Origin: Escherichia phage MLF4
DNA length: 64,000 nucleotides
Sequence record: NC_055780.1
Strand: one strand, 5' to 3'
A program made the position numbers and the translations under genes. Positions 5,343 to 19,249 of this stretch are shown in pieces (within the stretch, counting starts at the first letter, position 1; each line of letters starts with the position of its first letter). Under the pieces are notes generated by a model. That model did not search any database. It had not been told where the DNA came from and saw nothing but the letters and a program-made list of their open reading frames with translations.

Positions 5343-5636
5343 ATGGCCTTAAAAGCAACGGCACTATTTGCCATGCTAGGATTAGCATTTGCTTTGTCTC
5401 CACCGATTGAAGCAAATGTCGATCCTCATTTTGATAAATTTATGGAATCTGGTATTAGACATGTTTATATGCTTTTTGAAAATAAAAGCGTAGAATCATC
5501 TGAACAGTTCTATAGTTTTATGCGAACGACTTATAAAAATGACCCGTGCTCTTCCGATTTTGAATGTATAGAGCGAGGCGCGGAGATGGCACAATCATAC
5601 GCTAGAATTATGAACATTAAATTGGAGACTGAATGA
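5343..5636 (+). CDS. rI: RI lysis-inhibition regulator (97 aa, signal-anchor)
   Basis: ATG after TAGGAGG; N-terminus MALKATALFAMLGL and size match recollection of T4 RI. Confidence 0.85.
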   Translation: MALKATALFAMLGLAFALSPPIEANVDPHFDKFMESGIRHVYMLFENKSVESSEQFYSFMRTTYKNDPCSSDFECIERGAEMAQSYARIMNIKLETE

Positions 5637-10138: not shown

Positions 10139-11107
10139 ATGAAAACTGTAACTATCAATAAGGGTATTTACTTCGGTAAAGAAATCTCTGGAACTTTTGA
10201 GCTCTTAGGCGAATGGTTCCCAGATAATGCTCCGGTAGATGCACAAGGAGATGGTAAAGTTTTTGTTGAAATTGACGGTAAACGTCGCGGTGTTTGGGTT
10301 TACAAATCAGACATTTCATATGATGGTGTAAAAGTTGAAGAAGTTAAAGAATCGTATGAAGATATGAAAACCCGCATTAATAAAAGATTTAATGTTATGG
10401 GAATGATGACGAATGGTATTATTAACGGAAACATTCGTTCATTAATTATCTCTGGTGCAGCAGGTATTGGTAAAACGTATTCTTTAGATAAAGCTTTAAA
10501 TAAAGCAAATGATATTGGATACATTGAATATAAAAGCATTAATGGTAAAATCTCTGGTATTGGTCTTTATGAGCAGCTTTGGAATAATCGTGAAGAGAAT
10601 TCTGTCCTTTTGATTGATGATGTGGATGTTTTCTCTGATATGGACATTCTTAATCTTCTGAAAGCTGCTCTGGACACTGGAGAGACCCGTAAAGTCTGCT
10701 GGAGCACCGCATCTTCTTACTTAGAAGAAAAAGGCATTGAGCGTGAGTTTGAATTTAAAGGAACGATTGTTTTTATCACAAACGTTGACATTGACCGCGA
10801 ATTAGACCGTGGTACTAAACTTGCTCCACATTTACAAGCATTAGTGTCCCGCTCAGTTTATTTGGATTTGGGTGTTCACACTAATGAAGAAATTATGGTC
10901 AGGGTTGAAGATGTTATTCTTTCAACTGACATGATGCAAAAGCGCGGTCTTTCTGATGAAGAAACTTATAAAGCATTATCATGGATGAAAGTCAATGTTA
11001 ATCGTTTACGCAATGTTTCACTGCGTACTGCTCTTTATCTTGCTGACTTTATTATGACCGACAAAAACGGTTGGGAAGAAATCGCTGAGGTTACTCTTCT
11101 GAAATAA
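10139..11107 (+). CDS. AAA+ family ATPase (322 aa)
   Basis: ATG after AAAGGAGAA; Walker A GAAGIGKT, Walker B LLIDDVD. Confidence 0.6.
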   Translation: MKTVTINKGIYFGKEISGTFELLGEWFPDNAPVDAQGDGKVFVEIDGKRRGVWVYKSDISYDGVKVEEVKESYEDMKTRINKRFNVMGMMTNGIINGNIRSLIISGAAGIGKTYSLDKALNKANDIGYIEYKSINGKISGIGLYEQLWNNREENSVLLIDDVDVFSDMDILNLLKAALDTGETRKVCWSTASSYLEEKGIEREFEFKGTIVFITNVDIDRELDRGTKLAPHLQALVSRSVYLDLGVHTNEEIMVRVEDVILSTDMMQKRGLSDEETYKALSWMKVNVNRLRNVSLRTALYLADFIMTDKNGWEEIAEVTLLK

Positions 11108-11571: not shown

Positions 11572-12099
11572 ATGAATGCTAAAGATATTTTCAACTTGGT
11601 AAATTACAACGATGGTAAATTTAAATCTGAAGCACAAAGCAAGTTCTTTAATGACATCTCAATTGGAGGTGAAATCACGGTTGATGGAGGACAAATTTAT
11701 AAATCTCGTTGGAATTGGATTGTTATCATCGATGAGATTGGTATTGTAGAAATTTACAAAAATACGAATAAAAATCGTACATTACACTGGTCTCGTGATA
11801 CTAACGAACAGTACAAAAAGGATAAAGCATCTAAGTTATCTCGTGTAACTCAAGAAGATATTGAGTTCATCAAGAAAGATATTTTGATGTATGATAACTT
11901 AATTGCTGAAGAGCAAGCTGTTATTGATAAATTTGATGAGATTAAAGCTTCTCGTGAAATTCCTGATTTTATGAAAGAATCAGTAAATGAACGATACACT
12001 CTCATTTCAGAGCGTATTAAAACTTACAAAAAGCAAAGAGCTGAACGCCAGAATACTCTTCGGAAGTTTGAAGAACGGTTAAAGACGGTACTCGCATAA
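11572..12099 (+). CDS. hypothetical protein (175 aa)
   Basis: ATG after CGGAGGAA. Confidence 0.5.
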   Translation: MNAKDIFNLVNYNDGKFKSEAQSKFFNDISIGGEITVDGGQIYKSRWNWIVIIDEIGIVEIYKNTNKNRTLHWSRDTNEQYKKDKASKLSRVTQEDIEFIKKDILMYDNLIAEEQAVIDKFDEIKASREIPDFMKESVNERYTLISERIKTYKKQRAERQNTLRKFEERLKTVLA

Positions 12100-12125
12100 C
12101 CGCTTTATACCAAGGATGGTATAAT
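12096..12125 (+). promoter_or_regulatory. possible promoter (CCAAGGATGGTATAAT motif)
   Basis: TATAAT 12120-12125; weak -35; same core motif as promoters at 14470 and 59486. Confidence 0.3.
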
Positions 12126-12154
12126 GGTTCTAAGCCCTTTTAATTGAGATTATT

Positions 12155-12562
12155 ATGAAACAGTTGATAATTAAAAGATTGAATTTATTGATATGTTGTT
12201 TATGTATAGTAATTGCATATGGTTATTACGCAATTAATGATTATATGCATTATAAAGATTATGATGTTACTGTAGTTAATACCCTTACAGGAACTCAAGG
12301 AAAGGGGTCTAGTTTATCGTTTATTGCCGTATATGAACTCAAAGACGGTTATAGATTTAGTGAATATATTTCCCCAGAGATGTATTCATCAATAGAAAAA
12401 GGCGATAATATTACTGTAAGTTTACGTCCTTTCGACGTAAAACAGACATTGTTTGATAATATTGTTTGGTTCTTTGGAATGGTATTAGTTCAATCTGTGT
12501 GTGGTGCTTATATAGTCTTTTCCATCATATTCTGTATATTTAGTAAAATTGAAATTGAGTGA
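12155..12562 (+). CDS. membrane protein (135 aa)
   Basis: Hydrophobic N- and C-terminal segments. Confidence 0.5.
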   Translation: MKQLIIKRLNLLICCLCIVIAYGYYAINDYMHYKDYDVTVVNTLTGTQGKGSSLSFIAVYELKDGYRFSEYISPEMYSSIEKGDNITVSLRPFDVKQTLFDNIVWFFGMVLVQSVCGAYIVFSIIFCIFSKIEIE

Positions 12563-12569
12563 GGAAAAT

Positions 12570-13457
12570 ATGTCAGTAGTAATTAATAATGTCAATACAG
12601 TAATTAAATCTTTAGTTAATAAAAAAATGAATGAATGGACTGTACTTCGTCGTGGAGAGCCAGATAAATTTTTTCATAGATTTAACCCAACTTTGGATTT
12701 GAATGTTATTGACAGAGATGTTCATGCAGAAATTTTAGATAAGTTTAAAGTTGATATTGGATTTGGATTAGAAAAACATTTGCAGCGAACAAACGGGTCT
12801 GGAATGGGTTTATCTAATCGCATTATGAAAGCCCTTAATAAAATTGGAGCATTGTCTCGTATTAACGCGAGTGAAATTCTTCGCAATTATAATAAAGGCT
12901 ATGATCTTTATGGTCGACTAATGCCGAAATTATCATTTGACCAAATGATCGCAGATTTGTGGGAAAATCAACGACGATTATTAGCATTAGGCGCTCGATT
13001 AGCTAAAGGTCTAGATAAACAAATGATTTTTAAGACCAATAATACAGAAGACCTTAAATGCTTTAAATTTAGTATTCGCGGAGATGATTATTATGTCAGA
13101 GCTCGCTCTACAGATTATGTTAATATGGGGCATCATCTCTGTTTAGCTTTTGAAGTTTTAAAAGAAGCCGGAACATTAGAATATGTGTCTGGTGCTAAAT
13201 GCCCGATTGGTTCAAGTTGTATTTTAATTTATCGCCCGGATGAATCCAGTTTAACTAAATTGCCTACAAAACCTGTACCAGTTCGCAGTAATGAAAAACA
13301 TTCTGAGCAAATTGATTATTTTAATAAGCAAATTGAAGAGCTGAATATTTCTATTCAACAGTATGACGATGAAATTTTCAGACTATCTGGATTGAGTAGT
13401 AAAGCTAAATCTGAGCGTGAAAAATTAATTAAAATTGTTGATTTACTTAAATCTTAA
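12570..13457 (+). CDS. hypothetical protein with C-terminal coiled-coil tail (295 aa)
   Basis: ATG after GAGGAAAA (ORF-track start 12549 is TTG); C-terminal heptad-like stretch. Confidence 0.5.
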   Translation: MSVVINNVNTVIKSLVNKKMNEWTVLRRGEPDKFFHRFNPTLDLNVIDRDVHAEILDKFKVDIGFGLEKHLQRTNGSGMGLSNRIMKALNKIGALSRINASEILRNYNKGYDLYGRLMPKLSFDQMIADLWENQRRLLALGARLAKGLDKQMIFKTNNTEDLKCFKFSIRGDDYYVRARSTDYVNMGHHLCLAFEVLKEAGTLEYVSGAKCPIGSSCILIYRPDESSLTKLPTKPVPVRSNEKHSEQIDYFNKQIEELNISIQQYDDEIFRLSGLSSKAKSEREKLIKIVDLLKS

Positions 13458-13465
13458 GGAACACT

Positions 13466-14470
13466 ATGAAAACTCGTTCTCAAATTGAAGATATGGTTCG
13501 TAATGCCAGCTATACTCGTGATGTTATGACATTTTTGTGCCAAAATAATTTAGACCCTGATAAAGTTAATCGTGATATTCACTTTAAATATATGAATAGC
13601 AGTGAATGGTTACGTCATTTTAGTAAAGCGGGGTATATTACACAAATGACTGCTCGTGAGCAGCTCACCGATTTCTGTAAAACTATTGATTATAAAAATC
13701 CTCTGTTTGTTCAAGGTGTTGGTCAGAGTAAGGTCGATTTATCATCTGGATTTTTTAATCCAAATCATTATCGTATTGAATGGAGATTTATTGCTCTATT
13801 TCGTAAACAATTAAAGCAAATTTTGTCTACTGCTAGTCGATTAAAAGGCTCTGATATTAACTTAAAGAATCTGAAATTTGATGGTTATACTCTTCAGATG
13901 GAAGTAAGACCATTAAAAGAAAATAATAGAACTGCACGAATTAGCTTTAAACCTAGTACTAAAAATTCTCTTTCAATTTGTGAATGTCTTAAATCACAGC
14001 TGACAGAAGCATTTAAGTATATGGATGTTGTTGCCGCTGTTCAATCTAAGATTTCGCAGCATTTCGAACGATTTAAATTAGATACGACAACATATGAACT
14101 TGATATGATCGTTTCATTTAAATATGATTTTTTGAGAAAGGACGAAGTTACACAAGAGAAAAAACCTGAACCCCAAACTAATTACTCATCAAACGATCCT
14201 AAATTTTGGATGTATAGTTCAGGTAATAAAGATGCATGGAAATTTAATAAAGTGAATTTTCTTCCTATTGAAAATCCGAGTCTTAAACCTGTTGAAAAAT
14301 GGCACGCGGATGCGATTGAGAAGTCTCTTAAGGCAGTAGATGATGAACTCGTTAAAGCAACTAATGAAGTGTTAGAAGCTGAAAAGATGCTAGAAAAAGC
14401 TCAAGAAAAAGTAAAAAATCTCACGAAGCAACGTTCTAAATTGAACAACGCACTAAATGCACTAAACTAG
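13466..14470 (+). CDS. hypothetical protein with C-terminal coiled-coil tail (334 aa)
   Basis: ATG after AAGGAAC; C-terminal 55 residues charged/heptad-like. Confidence 0.55.
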   Translation: MKTRSQIEDMVRNASYTRDVMTFLCQNNLDPDKVNRDIHFKYMNSSEWLRHFSKAGYITQMTAREQLTDFCKTIDYKNPLFVQGVGQSKVDLSSGFFNPNHYRIEWRFIALFRKQLKQILSTASRLKGSDINLKNLKFDGYTLQMEVRPLKENNRTARISFKPSTKNSLSICECLKSQLTEAFKYMDVVAAVQSKISQHFERFKLDTTTYELDMIVSFKYDFLRKDEVTQEKKPEPQTNYSSNDPKFWMYSSGNKDAWKFNKVNFLPIENPSLKPVEKWHADAIEKSLKAVDDELVKATNEVLEAEKMLEKAQEKVKNLTKQRSKLNNALNALN

Positions 14471-14499
14471 TTTACTTCGCCACAAGGATGTGGTATAAT
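14470..14499 (+). promoter_or_regulatory. T4-type early promoter
   Basis: GTTTAC 14470-14475, 18-nt spacer, TATAAT 14494-14499. Confidence 0.6.
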
Positions 14500-14527
14500 G
14501 TTCTTACTTTCTACTGAGGAGATTAAT

Positions 14528-15529
14528 ATGACTCGCAACGAATATATTAAATCGTTCAACAGCGTTATTGATGATAAAGTTAAACCTATGTTTAGTCAGA
14601 ATAGTGTGATTTCTATTATCAATCAATGGCTCAATAATACTGATGCAAGTATTGTTTCTTCCAGCAAATTTATTCATGAAGTTCATAAAATTTCTAGTCG
14701 TGCAGATAAAGATGATATTAAGGAAACCTTTAAAGGGTCTCGTCTTCTTTCATACTTAGTCAACAGAGATATTCTTAGTAAATTTGGGAAAGAAATTAAA
14801 CGAACTAAAGATGTAGTAGGATATAATTGGTTTGGTGATGTTAATTCTTATCATCTTAATAATAAAGAAGACCCTGAGAATATTTTTACTCGTCGTTGGA
14901 TTAGTAATTTCAGACTTTTCAAAGGACAAATTCTAAAATCAGCTTCTAAATTATGTTATGGCGATTATCGTCAAATTCATCCTTTGGCTTCTGATATGAT
15001 TATCGTAAAAGAATATGAGCTTGATGAAAATAAAGTAGCTATTTTTGTGAATTATGGATTTTTTACACCAAACGCTAATCAAAAGAATATTAATAAATTT
15101 TTCTCAATTGCTAGCACTATAACTTATCAATTAGAGGCGGTTTTGGGCTGTATGGAAACAGTAGAAAATATTCATACATATCCTTTTAAGAATATATGCG
15201 GTTGGGAAGGATATAAAATTGTAGTTAGTCTCCGTGAAGTAAAGTGCGCGTACTCACCGACTGATAAAGAAATTTATCATCAAAAATGTGATGAAATTGT
15301 GAATACTCCTAAAGAAGAAACTACACTTGAGGAACTAATGGAATGTCTTGATGATTCACCTGAACCGGTAGAAATTCGTCCAGAAGTTATTGCATTAGAA
15401 AAAGCTTATAAGGAAGCTCTAGAAATTTCTAATAAAGCACAGAAAGAATATGAGAAGGCTAAAAGGATTTGGGAAGAATCTGTTAATCGCCTTGATCGCT
15501 TAGAACAGGCTTTACAGTTAATTAAGTAA
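14528..15529 (+). CDS. hypothetical protein with C-terminal coiled-coil tail (333 aa)
   Basis: ATG after GAGGAG (ORF-track ATG 14498 sits inside the -10 box); C-terminal heptad-like stretch. Confidence 0.55.
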   Translation: MTRNEYIKSFNSVIDDKVKPMFSQNSVISIINQWLNNTDASIVSSSKFIHEVHKISSRADKDDIKETFKGSRLLSYLVNRDILSKFGKEIKRTKDVVGYNWFGDVNSYHLNNKEDPENIFTRRWISNFRLFKGQILKSASKLCYGDYRQIHPLASDMIIVKEYELDENKVAIFVNYGFFTPNANQKNINKFFSIASTITYQLEAVLGCMETVENIHTYPFKNICGWEGYKIVVSLREVKCAYSPTDKEIYHQKCDEIVNTPKEETTLEELMECLDDSPEPVEIRPEVIALEKAYKEALEISNKAQKEYEKAKRIWEESVNRLDRLEQALQLIK

Positions 15530-15583
15530 AATTTAAAGCCAAGGATGGCTCGGAGTATAAATCATTAACCAAGTGAGAAGAAC

Positions 15584-16513
15584 ATGAAAACTCGTAAACA
15601 TTATATTGATTATTTTGACAGTCTTATTACTAAACATCGTAATTATCAGATCGGACACAGAGCAGTAATCAATAATATTCTTCGTGATTTCCTTCAATAT
15701 GTTGGCCAGGAAAATTATATCTGTAAAGATACTCAAAACGCTTATTCTCATTCGTTAGGTAATTTGCTTGAATGGTTTAAACGTTCTCGTATGTTATCTT
15801 CTACTGTAGCTCGCGATAACATTAAAAACTTTATGAAGCCGAGCTTTATTAAATCTGAGACATCTATAACTGATTTGGTTGAATTTACTATTGTTAACGA
15901 TGTTAAAAAGACTCATTTGGCTGATTGGTTATCTACCATTCCTGAAACTAAATTTGCTGATAAATTTGCTTGTCAATTCAATGACCAAGTGAATATGCTT
16001 TTTAAGCATGCTCGCAAACTGTTTACCGCGGGTGATGACCGTACAAATACAGTTCATGTTAAGGACTGGGTTATTGCTGATGAAGTAACACACAAGCCAG
16101 GTGGTTCATCAGTATTAATTAATATCCAGGTTCCTTATTATTACTCACGTAATCTCGGCACCATGACAGCTAAAGAAATTAATAAGCACAACAAAACTAT
16201 TCGTTCGTTGTCTTATAAACTCCGCATGATGTTAAAAATCATGGACGTAGTAGAAATGTATGACGAAACCGAAGATAATGGTTCAATGTTATACAGTTCA
16301 CGTATTCTAATTAAACTGAAGAACCCTAATACATATAAGACAGTTGTAAAAGAGCCTAAAGCAGAAAAGATTGATAACATGAGTGAAGAACGTGAATACC
16401 TCAAATCTCGACTGGTTGAAGTTGAATCCCAGATTGCCGAACACACCAAATTGTTAAAAGCTCTTAATGCAAAAGCAAATGGTTTACGTAATGCTATTGA
16501 GGTATTGAAATGA
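15584..16513 (+). CDS. hypothetical protein with C-terminal coiled-coil tail (309 aa)
   Basis: ATG after GTGAGAAG; C-terminal heptad-like stretch. Confidence 0.55.
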   Translation: MKTRKHYIDYFDSLITKHRNYQIGHRAVINNILRDFLQYVGQENYICKDTQNAYSHSLGNLLEWFKRSRMLSSTVARDNIKNFMKPSFIKSETSITDLVEFTIVNDVKKTHLADWLSTIPETKFADKFACQFNDQVNMLFKHARKLFTAGDDRTNTVHVKDWVIADEVTHKPGGSSVLINIQVPYYYSRNLGTMTAKEINKHNKTIRSLSYKLRMMLKIMDVVEMYDETEDNGSMLYSSRILIKLKNPNTYKTVVKEPKAEKIDNMSEEREYLKSRLVEVESQIAEHTKLLKALNAKANGLRNAIEVLK

Positions 16514-16899
16514 AAAAGCGTTTATTAGAAGACATTGCAGCTTCAAGTAATTCCAGTTTAATTAAAATTATTATGGCTGGTGAGGAAGATGATATGGAAA
16601 TGCGTGGAAAGATTCACGGCTGCGACGATTTAGATTTTAAACCTCCAGCATGGGATGCTATTATGGCTATGGTTGAACGACGTGAAAGAGCTTCTAAAAA
16701 CGTTCCTAATTGCCCTGAATGCGGTACTGAACAAGTTCAGTTGATTAACTGGCGTAAACCAGAGCTTGAATATAAATGCCGTCAATGTAAACATAAATTC
16801 AGTAAGCATGCTCCGGAAATGGTTAAATTGCCTGACTCTACTGAGTTCTTTAAAGAACTTGTGAGTGTTCAACCAATGCCTAATAATATTTTGGATTAA
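16510..16899 (+). CDS. zinc-ribbon protein (129 aa)
   Basis: ATGA overlap; CPECG..(17)..CRQC four-Cys motif. Confidence 0.5.
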
Positions 16900-16901
16900 A
16901 A

Positions 16902-17144
16902 ATGACCAAGCGTAAAGAATATATGGAGGCTGCTGAAAAGGCAGTCCGTGAATTAGCAATAGCTTATTATAATGAACACGGTAAATTTCCTGATAGATAC
17001 AGCGTGCTTAAATCTGCTTTAACTCGTTCATATAAAAATATGCTATCAGAAGTAAGTGATATTATATACAAACATAAAGAACAAACGGGCCAAAGTCTTG
17101 ATTACGACGAGACTTTTAAACAAGTACTAGGAATTAAGGAATAA
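16902..17144 (+). CDS. hypothetical protein (80 aa)
   Basis: ATG 2 nt after upstream stop. Confidence 0.45.
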
Positions 17145-17145
17145 T

Positions 17146-17409
17146 ATGTTTAAAGTATATGGTTATGATAGCAACATTCATAAATGTGTGTATTGCGATA
17201 ATGCAAAACGTCTTTTGACCGTGAAGAAACAGCCGTTTGAATTTATCAACATTATGCCGGAAAAAGGTGTTTTTGATGATGAGAAAATCGCTGAGCTTCT
17301 GACTAAACTAGGTCGTGATACTCAAATCGGCTTGACAATGCCCCAGGTATTTGCTCCTGATGGAAGTCATATTGGTGGATTTGACCAACTGCGAGAATAT
17401 TTTAAATGA
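17146..17409 (+). CDS. nrdC: phage glutaredoxin/thioredoxin NrdC (87 aa)
   Basis: ATG after AAGGA; CVYC active site; matches recollection of T4 NrdC. Confidence 0.85.
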   Translation: MFKVYGYDSNIHKCVYCDNAKRLLTVKKQPFEFINIMPEKGVFDDEKIAELLTKLGRDTQIGLTMPQVFAPDGSHIGGFDQLREYFK

Positions 17410-17804: not shown

Positions 17805-18125
17805 ATGACTATTGAAAATAAATTAGATGTTGATGCAGTTCTGAGCGAAATCATTGAAGACCATGATGCATTTTCGGAAAACTATGATTTCGATTTTTCC
17901 AATTATCTTAAACCTGTCGAAATAGAAGACTGGGTGCAAGATGGTAAATGTCAATATCGTCAGTGTGTTTACTTTAGTCCAAAACATAATGTACATGTGG
18001 CTGTAAATGAATCTCGGTCAGGTTCTTATCATTCTGACTGGTATTATGCAGTTCCGACTGTTGAACTAGTCGAGCTCCATGAACGTGTAGTAACTCAGAC
18101 AGTACGAGAATGGATTACGCTATAA
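17805..18125 (+). CDS. hypothetical protein (106 aa)
   Basis: First ATG of the ORF; upstream AT-rich, weak SD. Confidence 0.45.
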   Translation: MTIENKLDVDAVLSEIIEDHDAFSENYDFDFSNYLKPVEIEDWVQDGKCQYRQCVYFSPKHNVHVAVNESRSGSYHSDWYYAVPTVELVELHERVVTQTVREWITL

Positions 18126-18265
18126 AACCTTGGTGGGCGGCTAGATGGGAAACTGTAGAGTCAGAGCCGGAAGAACCGGTTTACACTGATGAAGAAACAG
18201 TATATAATGAACCAACGATAAATGACTTAATTGATATGGAGATGGGACATGATTACAGTAGATAA
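18110..18265 (+). CDS. possible small acidic protein (51 aa)
   Basis: ATG ORF bridging two genes, overlapping both by about 16 nt; below ORF-track cutoff; weak SD. Confidence 0.25.
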   Translation: MDYAIKPWWAARWETVESEPEEPVYTDEETVYNEPTINDLIDMEMGHDYSR

Positions 18266-18734
18266 GTGGTTTAGAATTAATCGTACTGATACAGGGCTGT
18301 GTAATTACTGGCCGGAACTTAGTGCAGGTACTGTCTTTAAAGTTCGTGAACTCGCAAAAGAATGTGAAGATGATATAGAGCCTGACACTGGAATTATTGA
18401 AATTGAACTTTCTGATGGAAAAATTATTAACATCTACGATAAGCCAATTACGTATTGGTGCTTGTGGAATACTGAATCAGTAGAAAATGGCGAAATTGAA
18501 GAAGTTGTAGAGAGAACTAATCAAGTTGTTCAGAAGCCTAAAGCCGATTTTCAAGGTGAACGTATTCCATACGCATTAGCTAAATTAGCTGCGCAAGAAA
18601 ATAACGATGGCTATGAAGGTAACCTGATGCAAGCTGCCGCAGAATACATTGAATGGCTTGAAAATCAAATTTCTTTTTCTGACCAAAAGATTCGGCAATA
18701 TAAGCGATTGAATCAAATGTTTTACAATACTTGA
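18249..18734 (+). CDS. hypothetical protein (161 aa) at the pin (protease-inhibitor) position next to gene 49
   Basis: ORF-track start 18231 is TTG; ATG 18249 after GGAGATGGG; assignment by size and position only. Confidence 0.45.
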   Translation: MITVDKWFRINRTDTGLCNYWPELSAGTVFKVRELAKECEDDIEPDTGIIEIELSDGKIINIYDKPITYWCLWNTESVENGEIEEVVERTNQVVQKPKADFQGERIPYALAKLAAQENNDGYEGNLMQAAAEYIEWLENQISFSDQKIRQYKRLNQMFYNT

Positions 18735-18775: not shown

Positions 18776-19249
18776 ATGTTATTGACTGGCAAATTATATA
18801 AAGAAGAAAAACAGAAATTTTATGATGCACAAAACGGTAAATGCTTAATTTGCCAACGAGAACTAAATCCTGATGTTCAAGCTAATCACCTTGACCATGA
18901 CCATGAATTAAATGGACCAAAAGCAGGAAAGGTACGTGGATTGCTTTGTAATCTCTGCAATGCCGCAGAAGGTCAAATGAAGCATAAATTTAATCGTTCT
19001 GGCTTAAAGGGACAAGGTGTTGATTATCTTGAATGGTTAGAAAATTTACTTACTTATTTAAAATCCGATTACACCCAAAATAATATTCACCCTAACTTTG
19101 TTGGAGATAAATCAAAGGAATTTTCTCGTTTAGGAAAAGAGGAAATGATGGCTGAGATGCTTCAAAGAGGATTTGAATATAATGAATCTGACACTAAAAC
19201 ACAATTAATAGCTTCATTTAAGAAGCAGCTTAGAAAGAGTTTAAAATGA
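18776..19249 (+). CDS. 49: endonuclease VII, Holliday-junction resolvase (157 aa)
   Basis: N-terminus MLLTGKLYKEEKQKFYDAQNGKCLICQ and HDHELNGPKAG motif match recollection of T4 gp49. Confidence 0.85.
   Translation: MLLTGKLYKEEKQKFYDAQNGKCLICQRELNPDVQANHLDHDHELNGPKAGKVRGLLCNLCNAAEGQMKHKFNRSGLKGQGVDYLEWLENLLTYLKSDYTQNNIHPNFVGDKSKEFSRLGKEEMMAEMLQRGFEYNESDTKTQLIASFKKQLRKSLK

Follow-up and report, generated by a model that had tools for sequence, protein, structure and literature searches.

Identity and arrangement of the genes

The stretch of Escherichia phage MLF4 DNA analysed here (NC_055780.1; its full 64,000 nucleotides are called the window below) belongs to a Tequatrovirus, a T4-like phage, and carries a tandem array of four + strand genes between rI and nrdC. 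Their T4 orthologues are nrdC.6, nrdC.5, nrdC.4 and nrdC.3. Judged from sequence profiles, their products form one superfamily built on a shared plan, and we suggest below that they may be a family of early anti-defence proteins. Over 700 phage records match the array and its immediate surroundings (12100-16950), and nucleotide identity reaches 97% in the best of them.

The first gene of the array, nrdC.6 (12570-13457), encodes 295 residues that match PHROG 2257 (E 2e-152) and are 96.5% identical to T4 nrdC.6 over residues 1-258. It is followed by nrdC.5 (13466-14470; 334 residues), which is 91% identical to its T4 counterpart and lies, as in the T4 reference genome NC_000866, between nrdC.6 and nrdC.4. 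Its match to Pfam DUF7235 (PF23882) scores 391.2 bits, where 30 is the cut-off, and runs the full length of both the protein (residues 1-334) and the model (positions 1-307 of 307). The third and fourth genes, nrdC.4 (14528-15529; 333 residues) and nrdC.3 (15584-16513; 309 residues), both match PHROG 1435 (E 5e-167 and 2e-115) and are 90% and 60% identical to the respective T4 proteins. Pfam PF26897 (‘Phage_T4_Y04OP’) is a precomputed match in all 64 of the 64 nrdC.4 homologues, and PF26899 is carried by close homologues of nrdC.6, including one that is 98% identical.

All four genes have a Shine-Dalgarno-like GAGG or AAGG 6-10 nucleotides before the ATG, and at 12570 and 14528 the ribosome-binding sites and family alignments favour shorter starts over the longest open reading frames. 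The window follows the T4 gene order on the opposite strand (rI, nrdC.11, nrdC.10, nrdC.9, nrdC.8, nrdC.7, the array, nrdC.2, nrdC.1, nrdC and gene 49), and synteny with NC_000866 spans nrdC.10 through gene 49. The first-pass annotation, made from the sequence alone, had correctly placed four + strand genes of similar size, starting at 12570, 13466, 14528 and 15584, in the accessory zone between rI (5343-5633) and nrdC (17146-17409), and both of the tail peptides that it quoted occur in the proteins. It had recognised no identity for the products. In fact they are the catalogued T4 proteins NrdC.3 to NrdC.6, covered by DUF7235, PF26897 and PF26899, and nrdC.5 has a published phenotype.

Coiled-coil tails

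The C-terminal 48-57 residues of all four proteins show a hydrophobicity period of 3.45-3.5 residues (p ≤ 0.0125, each tail being compared with 2000 shuffles of its own residues), in line with the charged, Leu/Ile-spaced, coiled-coil-like endings described at first pass. The tail of nrdC.5 (residues 278-334, encoded at 14297-14467 on the + strand, as are the others) has a period of exactly 3.5 (p < 0.0005), with 15 of its 16 a/d positions hydrophobic. That of nrdC.4 (residues 283-333; 15374-15526) also has a period of 3.5 (p < 0.0005), and that of nrdC.3 (residues 262-309; 16367-16510) a period of 3.45 (p = 0.0125); in the latter, hydrophobic residues fill 12 of the 14 a/d positions. In nrdC.6 (residues 242-295; 13293-13454) heptad periodicity is significant at p = 0.0025. 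Heptads were scored with a scheme of our own, other than COILS or MARCOIL, and a coiled coil was taken to need heptad periodicity with hydrophobic a/d positions over at least four heptads. By a cruder 28-residue window score, three tails are significant and that of nrdC.4 is borderline.

The tails are also alike in composition: a/d positions are 80-94% hydrophobic, charged residues make up 35-41%, and proline and glycine are nearly absent. The heptad register is unbroken, and its end point, counted from the C-terminus, is the same in each protein. An end motif, L..[AIV][LIV]..[LIF][KNE].?$, was derived post hoc from these proteins; its count, which is purely descriptive, comes to exactly these four among the 154 open reading frames of at least 60 residues in the window.

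AlphaFold2 monomer models of nrdC.5 and nrdC.6 predict long, solvent-exposed tail helices. In nrdC.5 this is a single 56-residue helix (278-333), with a block-mean predicted local distance difference test (pLDDT) score of 77-90 across residues 281-334; in nrdC.6 two helices (245-271 and 277-294) are interrupted at SGLSS. We infer that these heptad-repeat tails may oligomerise the proteins. Tails are better conserved than heads in the nrdC.6 family (mean identity 0.69 vs 0.45) and the nrdC.4 family (0.81 vs 0.72), and the nrdC.3 tail is nearly invariant across alleles that are just 60% identical overall.

Common descent of the four families

Pairwise identity among the paralogues is only 13-26%, and BLASTP among the four proteins finds a single link, between nrdC.4 and nrdC.3 (E 2.6e-8, 26% identity over 227 residues). 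These two also have PHROG 1435 and Pfam PF26897 in common. Profile-profile comparison reaches further. When family alignments were compared with hhalign, nrdC.4 and nrdC.3 were joined at 98% probability and nrdC.5 was aligned with nrdC.3/4 at 95% (E 3.7e-8, 155 columns). A profile built from nrdC.5, nrdC.4 and nrdC.3 was then searched exhaustively with HMMER over 1.84 billion cluster representatives and matched 21 proteins. Among these are bridging proteins from other T4-like phages (P0236, P0239 and P0244), which are divergent full-length members with the architecture and type of C-terminal ending found in the array, and which are encoded upstream of nrdC in their own contigs. P0236 can be aligned with nrdC.5 and with nrdC.4 alike, starting near residue 50 and running through the last residue, at ~95% probability. 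Because this alignment reaches the C-terminus in both proteins, the tails are homologous, beyond mere likeness.

The protein from nrdC.6 is the most divergent member. Its hhalign probability rose to 61.5% once secondary structure taken from the AlphaFold models was included, and an enriched superfamily profile, to which the bridging sequences and the single member from Klebsiella phage JD18 had been added, aligned it at 92.5% in local mode (E 4.8e-7) and 95.9% in global mode. In that alignment, residues 43-294 of nrdC.6 correspond to residues 12-334 of nrdC.5, and the two C-termini coincide. The structural models (mean pLDDT 70.8 for nrdC.5 and 77.7 for nrdC.6) have a common order of elements: N-terminal helices, a motif-bearing helix pair, a second helix pair, a β-hairpin, a helix, another β-hairpin, a low-confidence linker and a terminal helix. 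In both, the first helix pair carries the motif K-x-G/R-x-L/I-S/T-x4-A-x3-L-x2-F/Y. In Foldseek searches against BFVD, the strong matches (E ≤ 0.001) of the two models are disjoint and two weak matches are shared, so that this comparison gives no direct link between them.

Taken together, the sequence evidence shows that nrdC.3, nrdC.4, nrdC.5 and nrdC.6 constitute one superfamily with homologous N-terminal domains, produced by an old series of duplications. That the same fold extends across the superfamily is suggested by the sequence profiles and by the topology of the two models. The shared plan is a ~225-residue α/β domain, a disordered and variable linker, and a coiled coil at the C-terminus whose last residues follow L..A[LI]..L[KN]. 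The initial reading of a shared architecture rather than recent duplication thus holds as far as the architecture goes; what does not stand is the idea that architecture is all the proteins share, since hhalign points to old duplication, and N-terminal regions judged unalignable by eye do align as profiles (98%, 95% and 92.5-95.9% probability).

Earlier records already cover the genes themselves, the Pfam and PHROG families to which they belong and the phenotype of nrdC.5. In the searchable literature, we found no description of DUF7235, Phage_T4_Y04OP and the nrdC.6 family as one superfamily, of a homologous C-terminal coiled coil, or of the array as a lineage-specific expansion from a single-copy gene.

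Distribution and rearrangement

The superfamily is limited to T4-like (Straboviridae) phages, with copy numbers from one to four. Klebsiella phage JD18 and one metagenomic relative have a single copy. Three copies occur in Gaprivervirus and Dhakavirus (nrdC.6, an nrdC.5-like gene and nrdC.4), as well as in phiE142, which is without nrdC.4, and Tequatrovirus has four. The fourth, nrdC.3, is a duplicate of nrdC.4 specific to Tequatrovirus and Carettavirus, and is present here as a divergent allele. At least three nrdC.3 allele classes occur among 652 phage records, at ~95%, ~77% and ~60% identity to the present one.

Array proteins are 60-96.5% identical to those of T4 and flanking genes 98-100%. 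Relative to other genera, the corresponding values are 22-52% for array proteins and 83-91% for nrdC and gene 49. Rearrangements are varied. Both nrdC.6 and nrdC.4 are split in T2, and a deletion in ACG-C40 (4805-5216) has brought the beginning of nrdC.5 up against the end of nrdC.3. One protein (P0057) is an in-frame chimera of an nrdC.5 head and an nrdC.3 tail, in another (P0059, 378 residues, from phage Sf25) residues 176-258 of nrdC.6 are duplicated internally, and a third (P0238) joins an unrelated 110-residue N-terminus to the nrdC.5 tail. In the T4 reference NC_000866 (10067-10894, minus strand), nrdC.6 has 275 residues and a frameshift moves the tail ISIQQYDDEIFRLSGLSSKAKSEREKLIKIVDLLKS to another frame; T4 record KJ477686 matches the entire 295-residue protein. 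The frameshift arose by mutation in the laboratory strain or stems from faulty sequencing. Rapid divergence together with frequent loss and recombination of the array genes reads as an arms-race signature.

Regulatory signals and neighbouring genes

The early promoter proposed at first pass for one member corresponds to a site upstream of nrdC.4 (14471-14499, + strand) with TTTACT, a 17-nucleotide spacer and TG-TATAAT, which makes 10 of 12 consensus matches plus an extended -10 TG. By consensus match it is a candidate T4-early-type promoter; matches of this type number 39 in the region vs 35 ± 5 in shuffled sequence, and so are not enriched. Position 14528 is the better start for nrdC.4, because the alternative ATG at 14498 falls within the -10 element of this promoter-like site. 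Before nrdC.3 (15505-15565), GGCTTTA and TAAAAT separated by 12 nucleotides resemble a T4 middle (MotA-box) promoter. The same interval contains TATAAATC, a 7/8 match to the late-promoter sequence TATAAATA.

Immediately upstream of nrdC.6 is nrdC.7 (12155-12562), preceded by nrdC.8 (11572-12099). The latter encodes 175 residues with a charged helical tail and was considered as a fifth member, but its periodicity is not significant (p = 0.24) and hhalign gives less than 1% probability to every family. The window contains no further family member. Genes of 241-262 residues that lie upstream of the single member in metagenomic T4-like contigs are unrelated to the family. Further upstream of the array, nrdC.10 (10139-11107) has the Walker A motif GAAGIGKT and probably encodes a P-loop/AAA-type ATPase. 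Downstream, the start of nrdC.2 (16510-16899) overlaps the stop codon of nrdC.3 (ATGA). Its product has 129 residues here vs 104 in T4, with 78% identity over the first 99, and contains a zinc-ribbon-like CxxC...CxxC motif; FmdB-type matches are weak and below the cut-off.

An inhibitor-rich early region

A functional anchor for the array comes from T4. A T4 deletion clone was unable to plate on E. coli ECOR17, and deletion of the host gene dsr1 restored plating (Srikant, Guegler, Laub, eLife 2022, PMC9391042). Plasmid-borne dsr1 shielded MG1655 from the deletion clone, and expression of T4 nrdC.5 restored infectivity (PMC9391042). Dsr1 is a SIR2-domain defence protein, and a 2026 preprint reports a TPR sensor, common to Dsr1 and Avs7, whose trigger is the major capsid protein of one Drexlerviridae phage (PMC12803255).

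The array sits in an inhibitor-rich early region. The orthologue of gp49.2, which inhibits the OLD defence nuclease (PMC13096335), lies 1.3 kb downstream of the array at 17805-18125 and is 96% identical to the T4 protein. The orthologue of Pin, an inhibitor of Lon according to the T4 annotation, is at 18231-18734 (95% identical to T4), and gene 49 begins at 18776.

General searches did not point to a function. Scans with Pfam, NCBIfam and PADLOC returned no functional family, the matches being DUF7235 and sub-threshold coiled-coil noise, and profile searches over all PDB sequences gave no match. The strong Foldseek matches of the nrdC.5 and nrdC.6 models in BFVD are just uncharacterised proteins of other T4-like phages. 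Weaker BFVD matches of the nrdC.5 head (ranks 12-50; E 5e-3 to 3.5e-2 over ~125-190 columns) include tail-completion, tail-terminator and minor-tail proteins. These structural similarities may be due to chance, or may hint weakly at mimicry of virion proteins. We found no functional work on nrdC.3, nrdC.4, nrdC.6 or their Pfam accessions in the searchable literature, and the three genes are absent from the main text of an accessory-gene screen (PMC12373910).

What do the array proteins do?

On balance, and with modest confidence, we favour a reading of the array as a set of paralogous early anti-defence proteins in which variable recognition heads are mounted on a conserved oligomerising tail. 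It would represent a lineage-specific expansion of one protein family of T4-like phages, made up of early-expressed, non-essential genes. The fast-diverging ~225-residue α/β N-terminal domain would be the target-recognition head, joined through a disordered linker rich in insertions and deletions to the conserved C-terminal heptad-repeat helix. Oligomerisation through this helix could yield a multivalent binder, and an oligomeric inhibitor would suit targets that are oligomers themselves. NrdC.5 would neutralise the SIR2-TPR NADase Dsr1; going by the analogy of DSAD1 and DSR2, it most likely binds Dsr1 directly and thereby blocks either the sensing of the trigger or activation. The products of nrdC.3, nrdC.4 and nrdC.6 may do likewise to other host immune sensors or to Dsr1-type variants. 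As paralogues of the anti-Dsr1 gene nrdC.5, these three are therefore good candidates for immune inhibitors. The first-pass suggestion of adaptor or decoy proteins, taken as binders with a common oligomerisation tail, is consistent with the ability of T4 nrdC.5 to counteract Dsr1.

Several points weigh against this interpretation. The functional data are limited to nrdC.5 and come from the T4 protein, which is 91% identical to the present one. The link to nrdC.6 required the enriched profile, simpler comparisons giving probabilities of 6-43%, and the nrdC.5 family shows no better conservation of tail than of head (0.89 vs 0.91).

The alternative that we take most seriously, while regarding it as doubtful, is that NrdC.5 is the sole immune inhibitor and that its paralogues have kept the scaffold for other early functions, such as host take-over, enzyme modulation or competition between phages. 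The very low identity among the paralogues would allow for this, the searchable literature yielded no data on nrdC.3, nrdC.4 or nrdC.6, and the available text of Srikant et al. reports nrdC.5 alone as the rescuing gene. However, the paralogues match nrdC.5 in fast evolution, frequent loss and recombination, and they lie in a region with other inhibitors, all of which is typical of counter-defence genes.

An unlikely elaboration of the anti-defence interpretation is that co-expressed paralogues form mixed oligomers through their shared register, giving a single multi-headed inhibitor in which every head mimics or occludes another trigger of pattern-recognition sensors of the host, TPR sensors of the Dsr1/Avs7 type being an example. 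Such mixing is conceivable because the heptad register at the end of the tail is common to the four proteins. If it occurs, the natural head-tail chimeras would be a means of shuffling specificities.

We consider it decidedly improbable that the head is a nucleic-acid-binding or regulatory module, in which a helix-turn-helix-like pair (KxGxLSxxxAxxxLxxF) binds DNA or RNA, the coiled coil dimerises, and the protein regulates host or phage expression. The idea draws on the best-conserved motif over the four families, a two-helix unit with single-residue separation. That the four are unrelated proteins with independently acquired or convergent coiled-coil tails has been largely refuted, and we give it very little credence: coiled coils easily look alike and pairwise BLASTP is blank outside nrdC.4/nrdC.3, but the head domains are co-linear in profile-profile alignments at 92-98% probability and the order of secondary structure is identical in the nrdC.5 and nrdC.6 models. 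A relationship to thioredoxin or ribonucleotide reductase has next to no chance of being correct, as the label ‘thioredoxin’ on many phage records is countered on three counts: Pfam and NCBIfam give no thioredoxin or glutaredoxin match, the proteins have no CxxC redox motif, and the models predict another fold. In GenBank, the ‘thioredoxin’ label on nrdC.1 through nrdC.6 goes back to the positional gene name nrdC.x, from which the error has spread, and our result corrects this widespread mis-annotation for the array genes.

T4 is the best-studied phage, yet few of its early accessory genes have an assigned role. Through their paralogy with nrdC.5, the one gene of this block with a phenotype, three ‘hypothetical proteins’ of T4 become specific and cheaply testable candidates as immune inhibitors not described before. 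Their build, with a variable head on a conserved and presumably oligomerising tail, points to a modularity of practical use: the heads could help to identify the sensors to which they are directed, and the host range of phages could be engineered with the module.

Relationship to known systems

The closest known system is T4 NrdC.5 (DUF7235) itself. The second gene of the array resembles it in its orthologous position, full-length Pfam match and tail, and differs by insertions and deletions in the linker; the anti-Dsr1 activity is known for the T4 allele. The other three array genes are merely remote paralogues of T4 NrdC.5.

DSAD1 of phage SPbeta, the inhibitor of DSR2, is the functional analogue, since it disarms a SIR2-type NADase through binding to the sensor region (PMC10981675, PMC11087589). 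Comparison of NrdC.5 with DSAD1 gave no homology, in sequence or in fold. Gp49.2 (anti-OLD) and Pin (anti-Lon) are similar to the array genes in their early, non-essential and variable neighbourhood and in general role. Unlike the array proteins, they are small and single-domain, without a paralogue array or coiled-coil tail, and they are unrelated to the array in sequence.

Genes three and four of the array are the orthologues of T4 NrdC.4 and NrdC.3 (PF26897, PHROG 1435), and gene one that of NrdC.6 (PF26899, PHROG 2257). Whereas the databases hold PF26897, PF26899 and DUF7235 apart, the profile comparisons presented here join them in one superfamily with a common tail.

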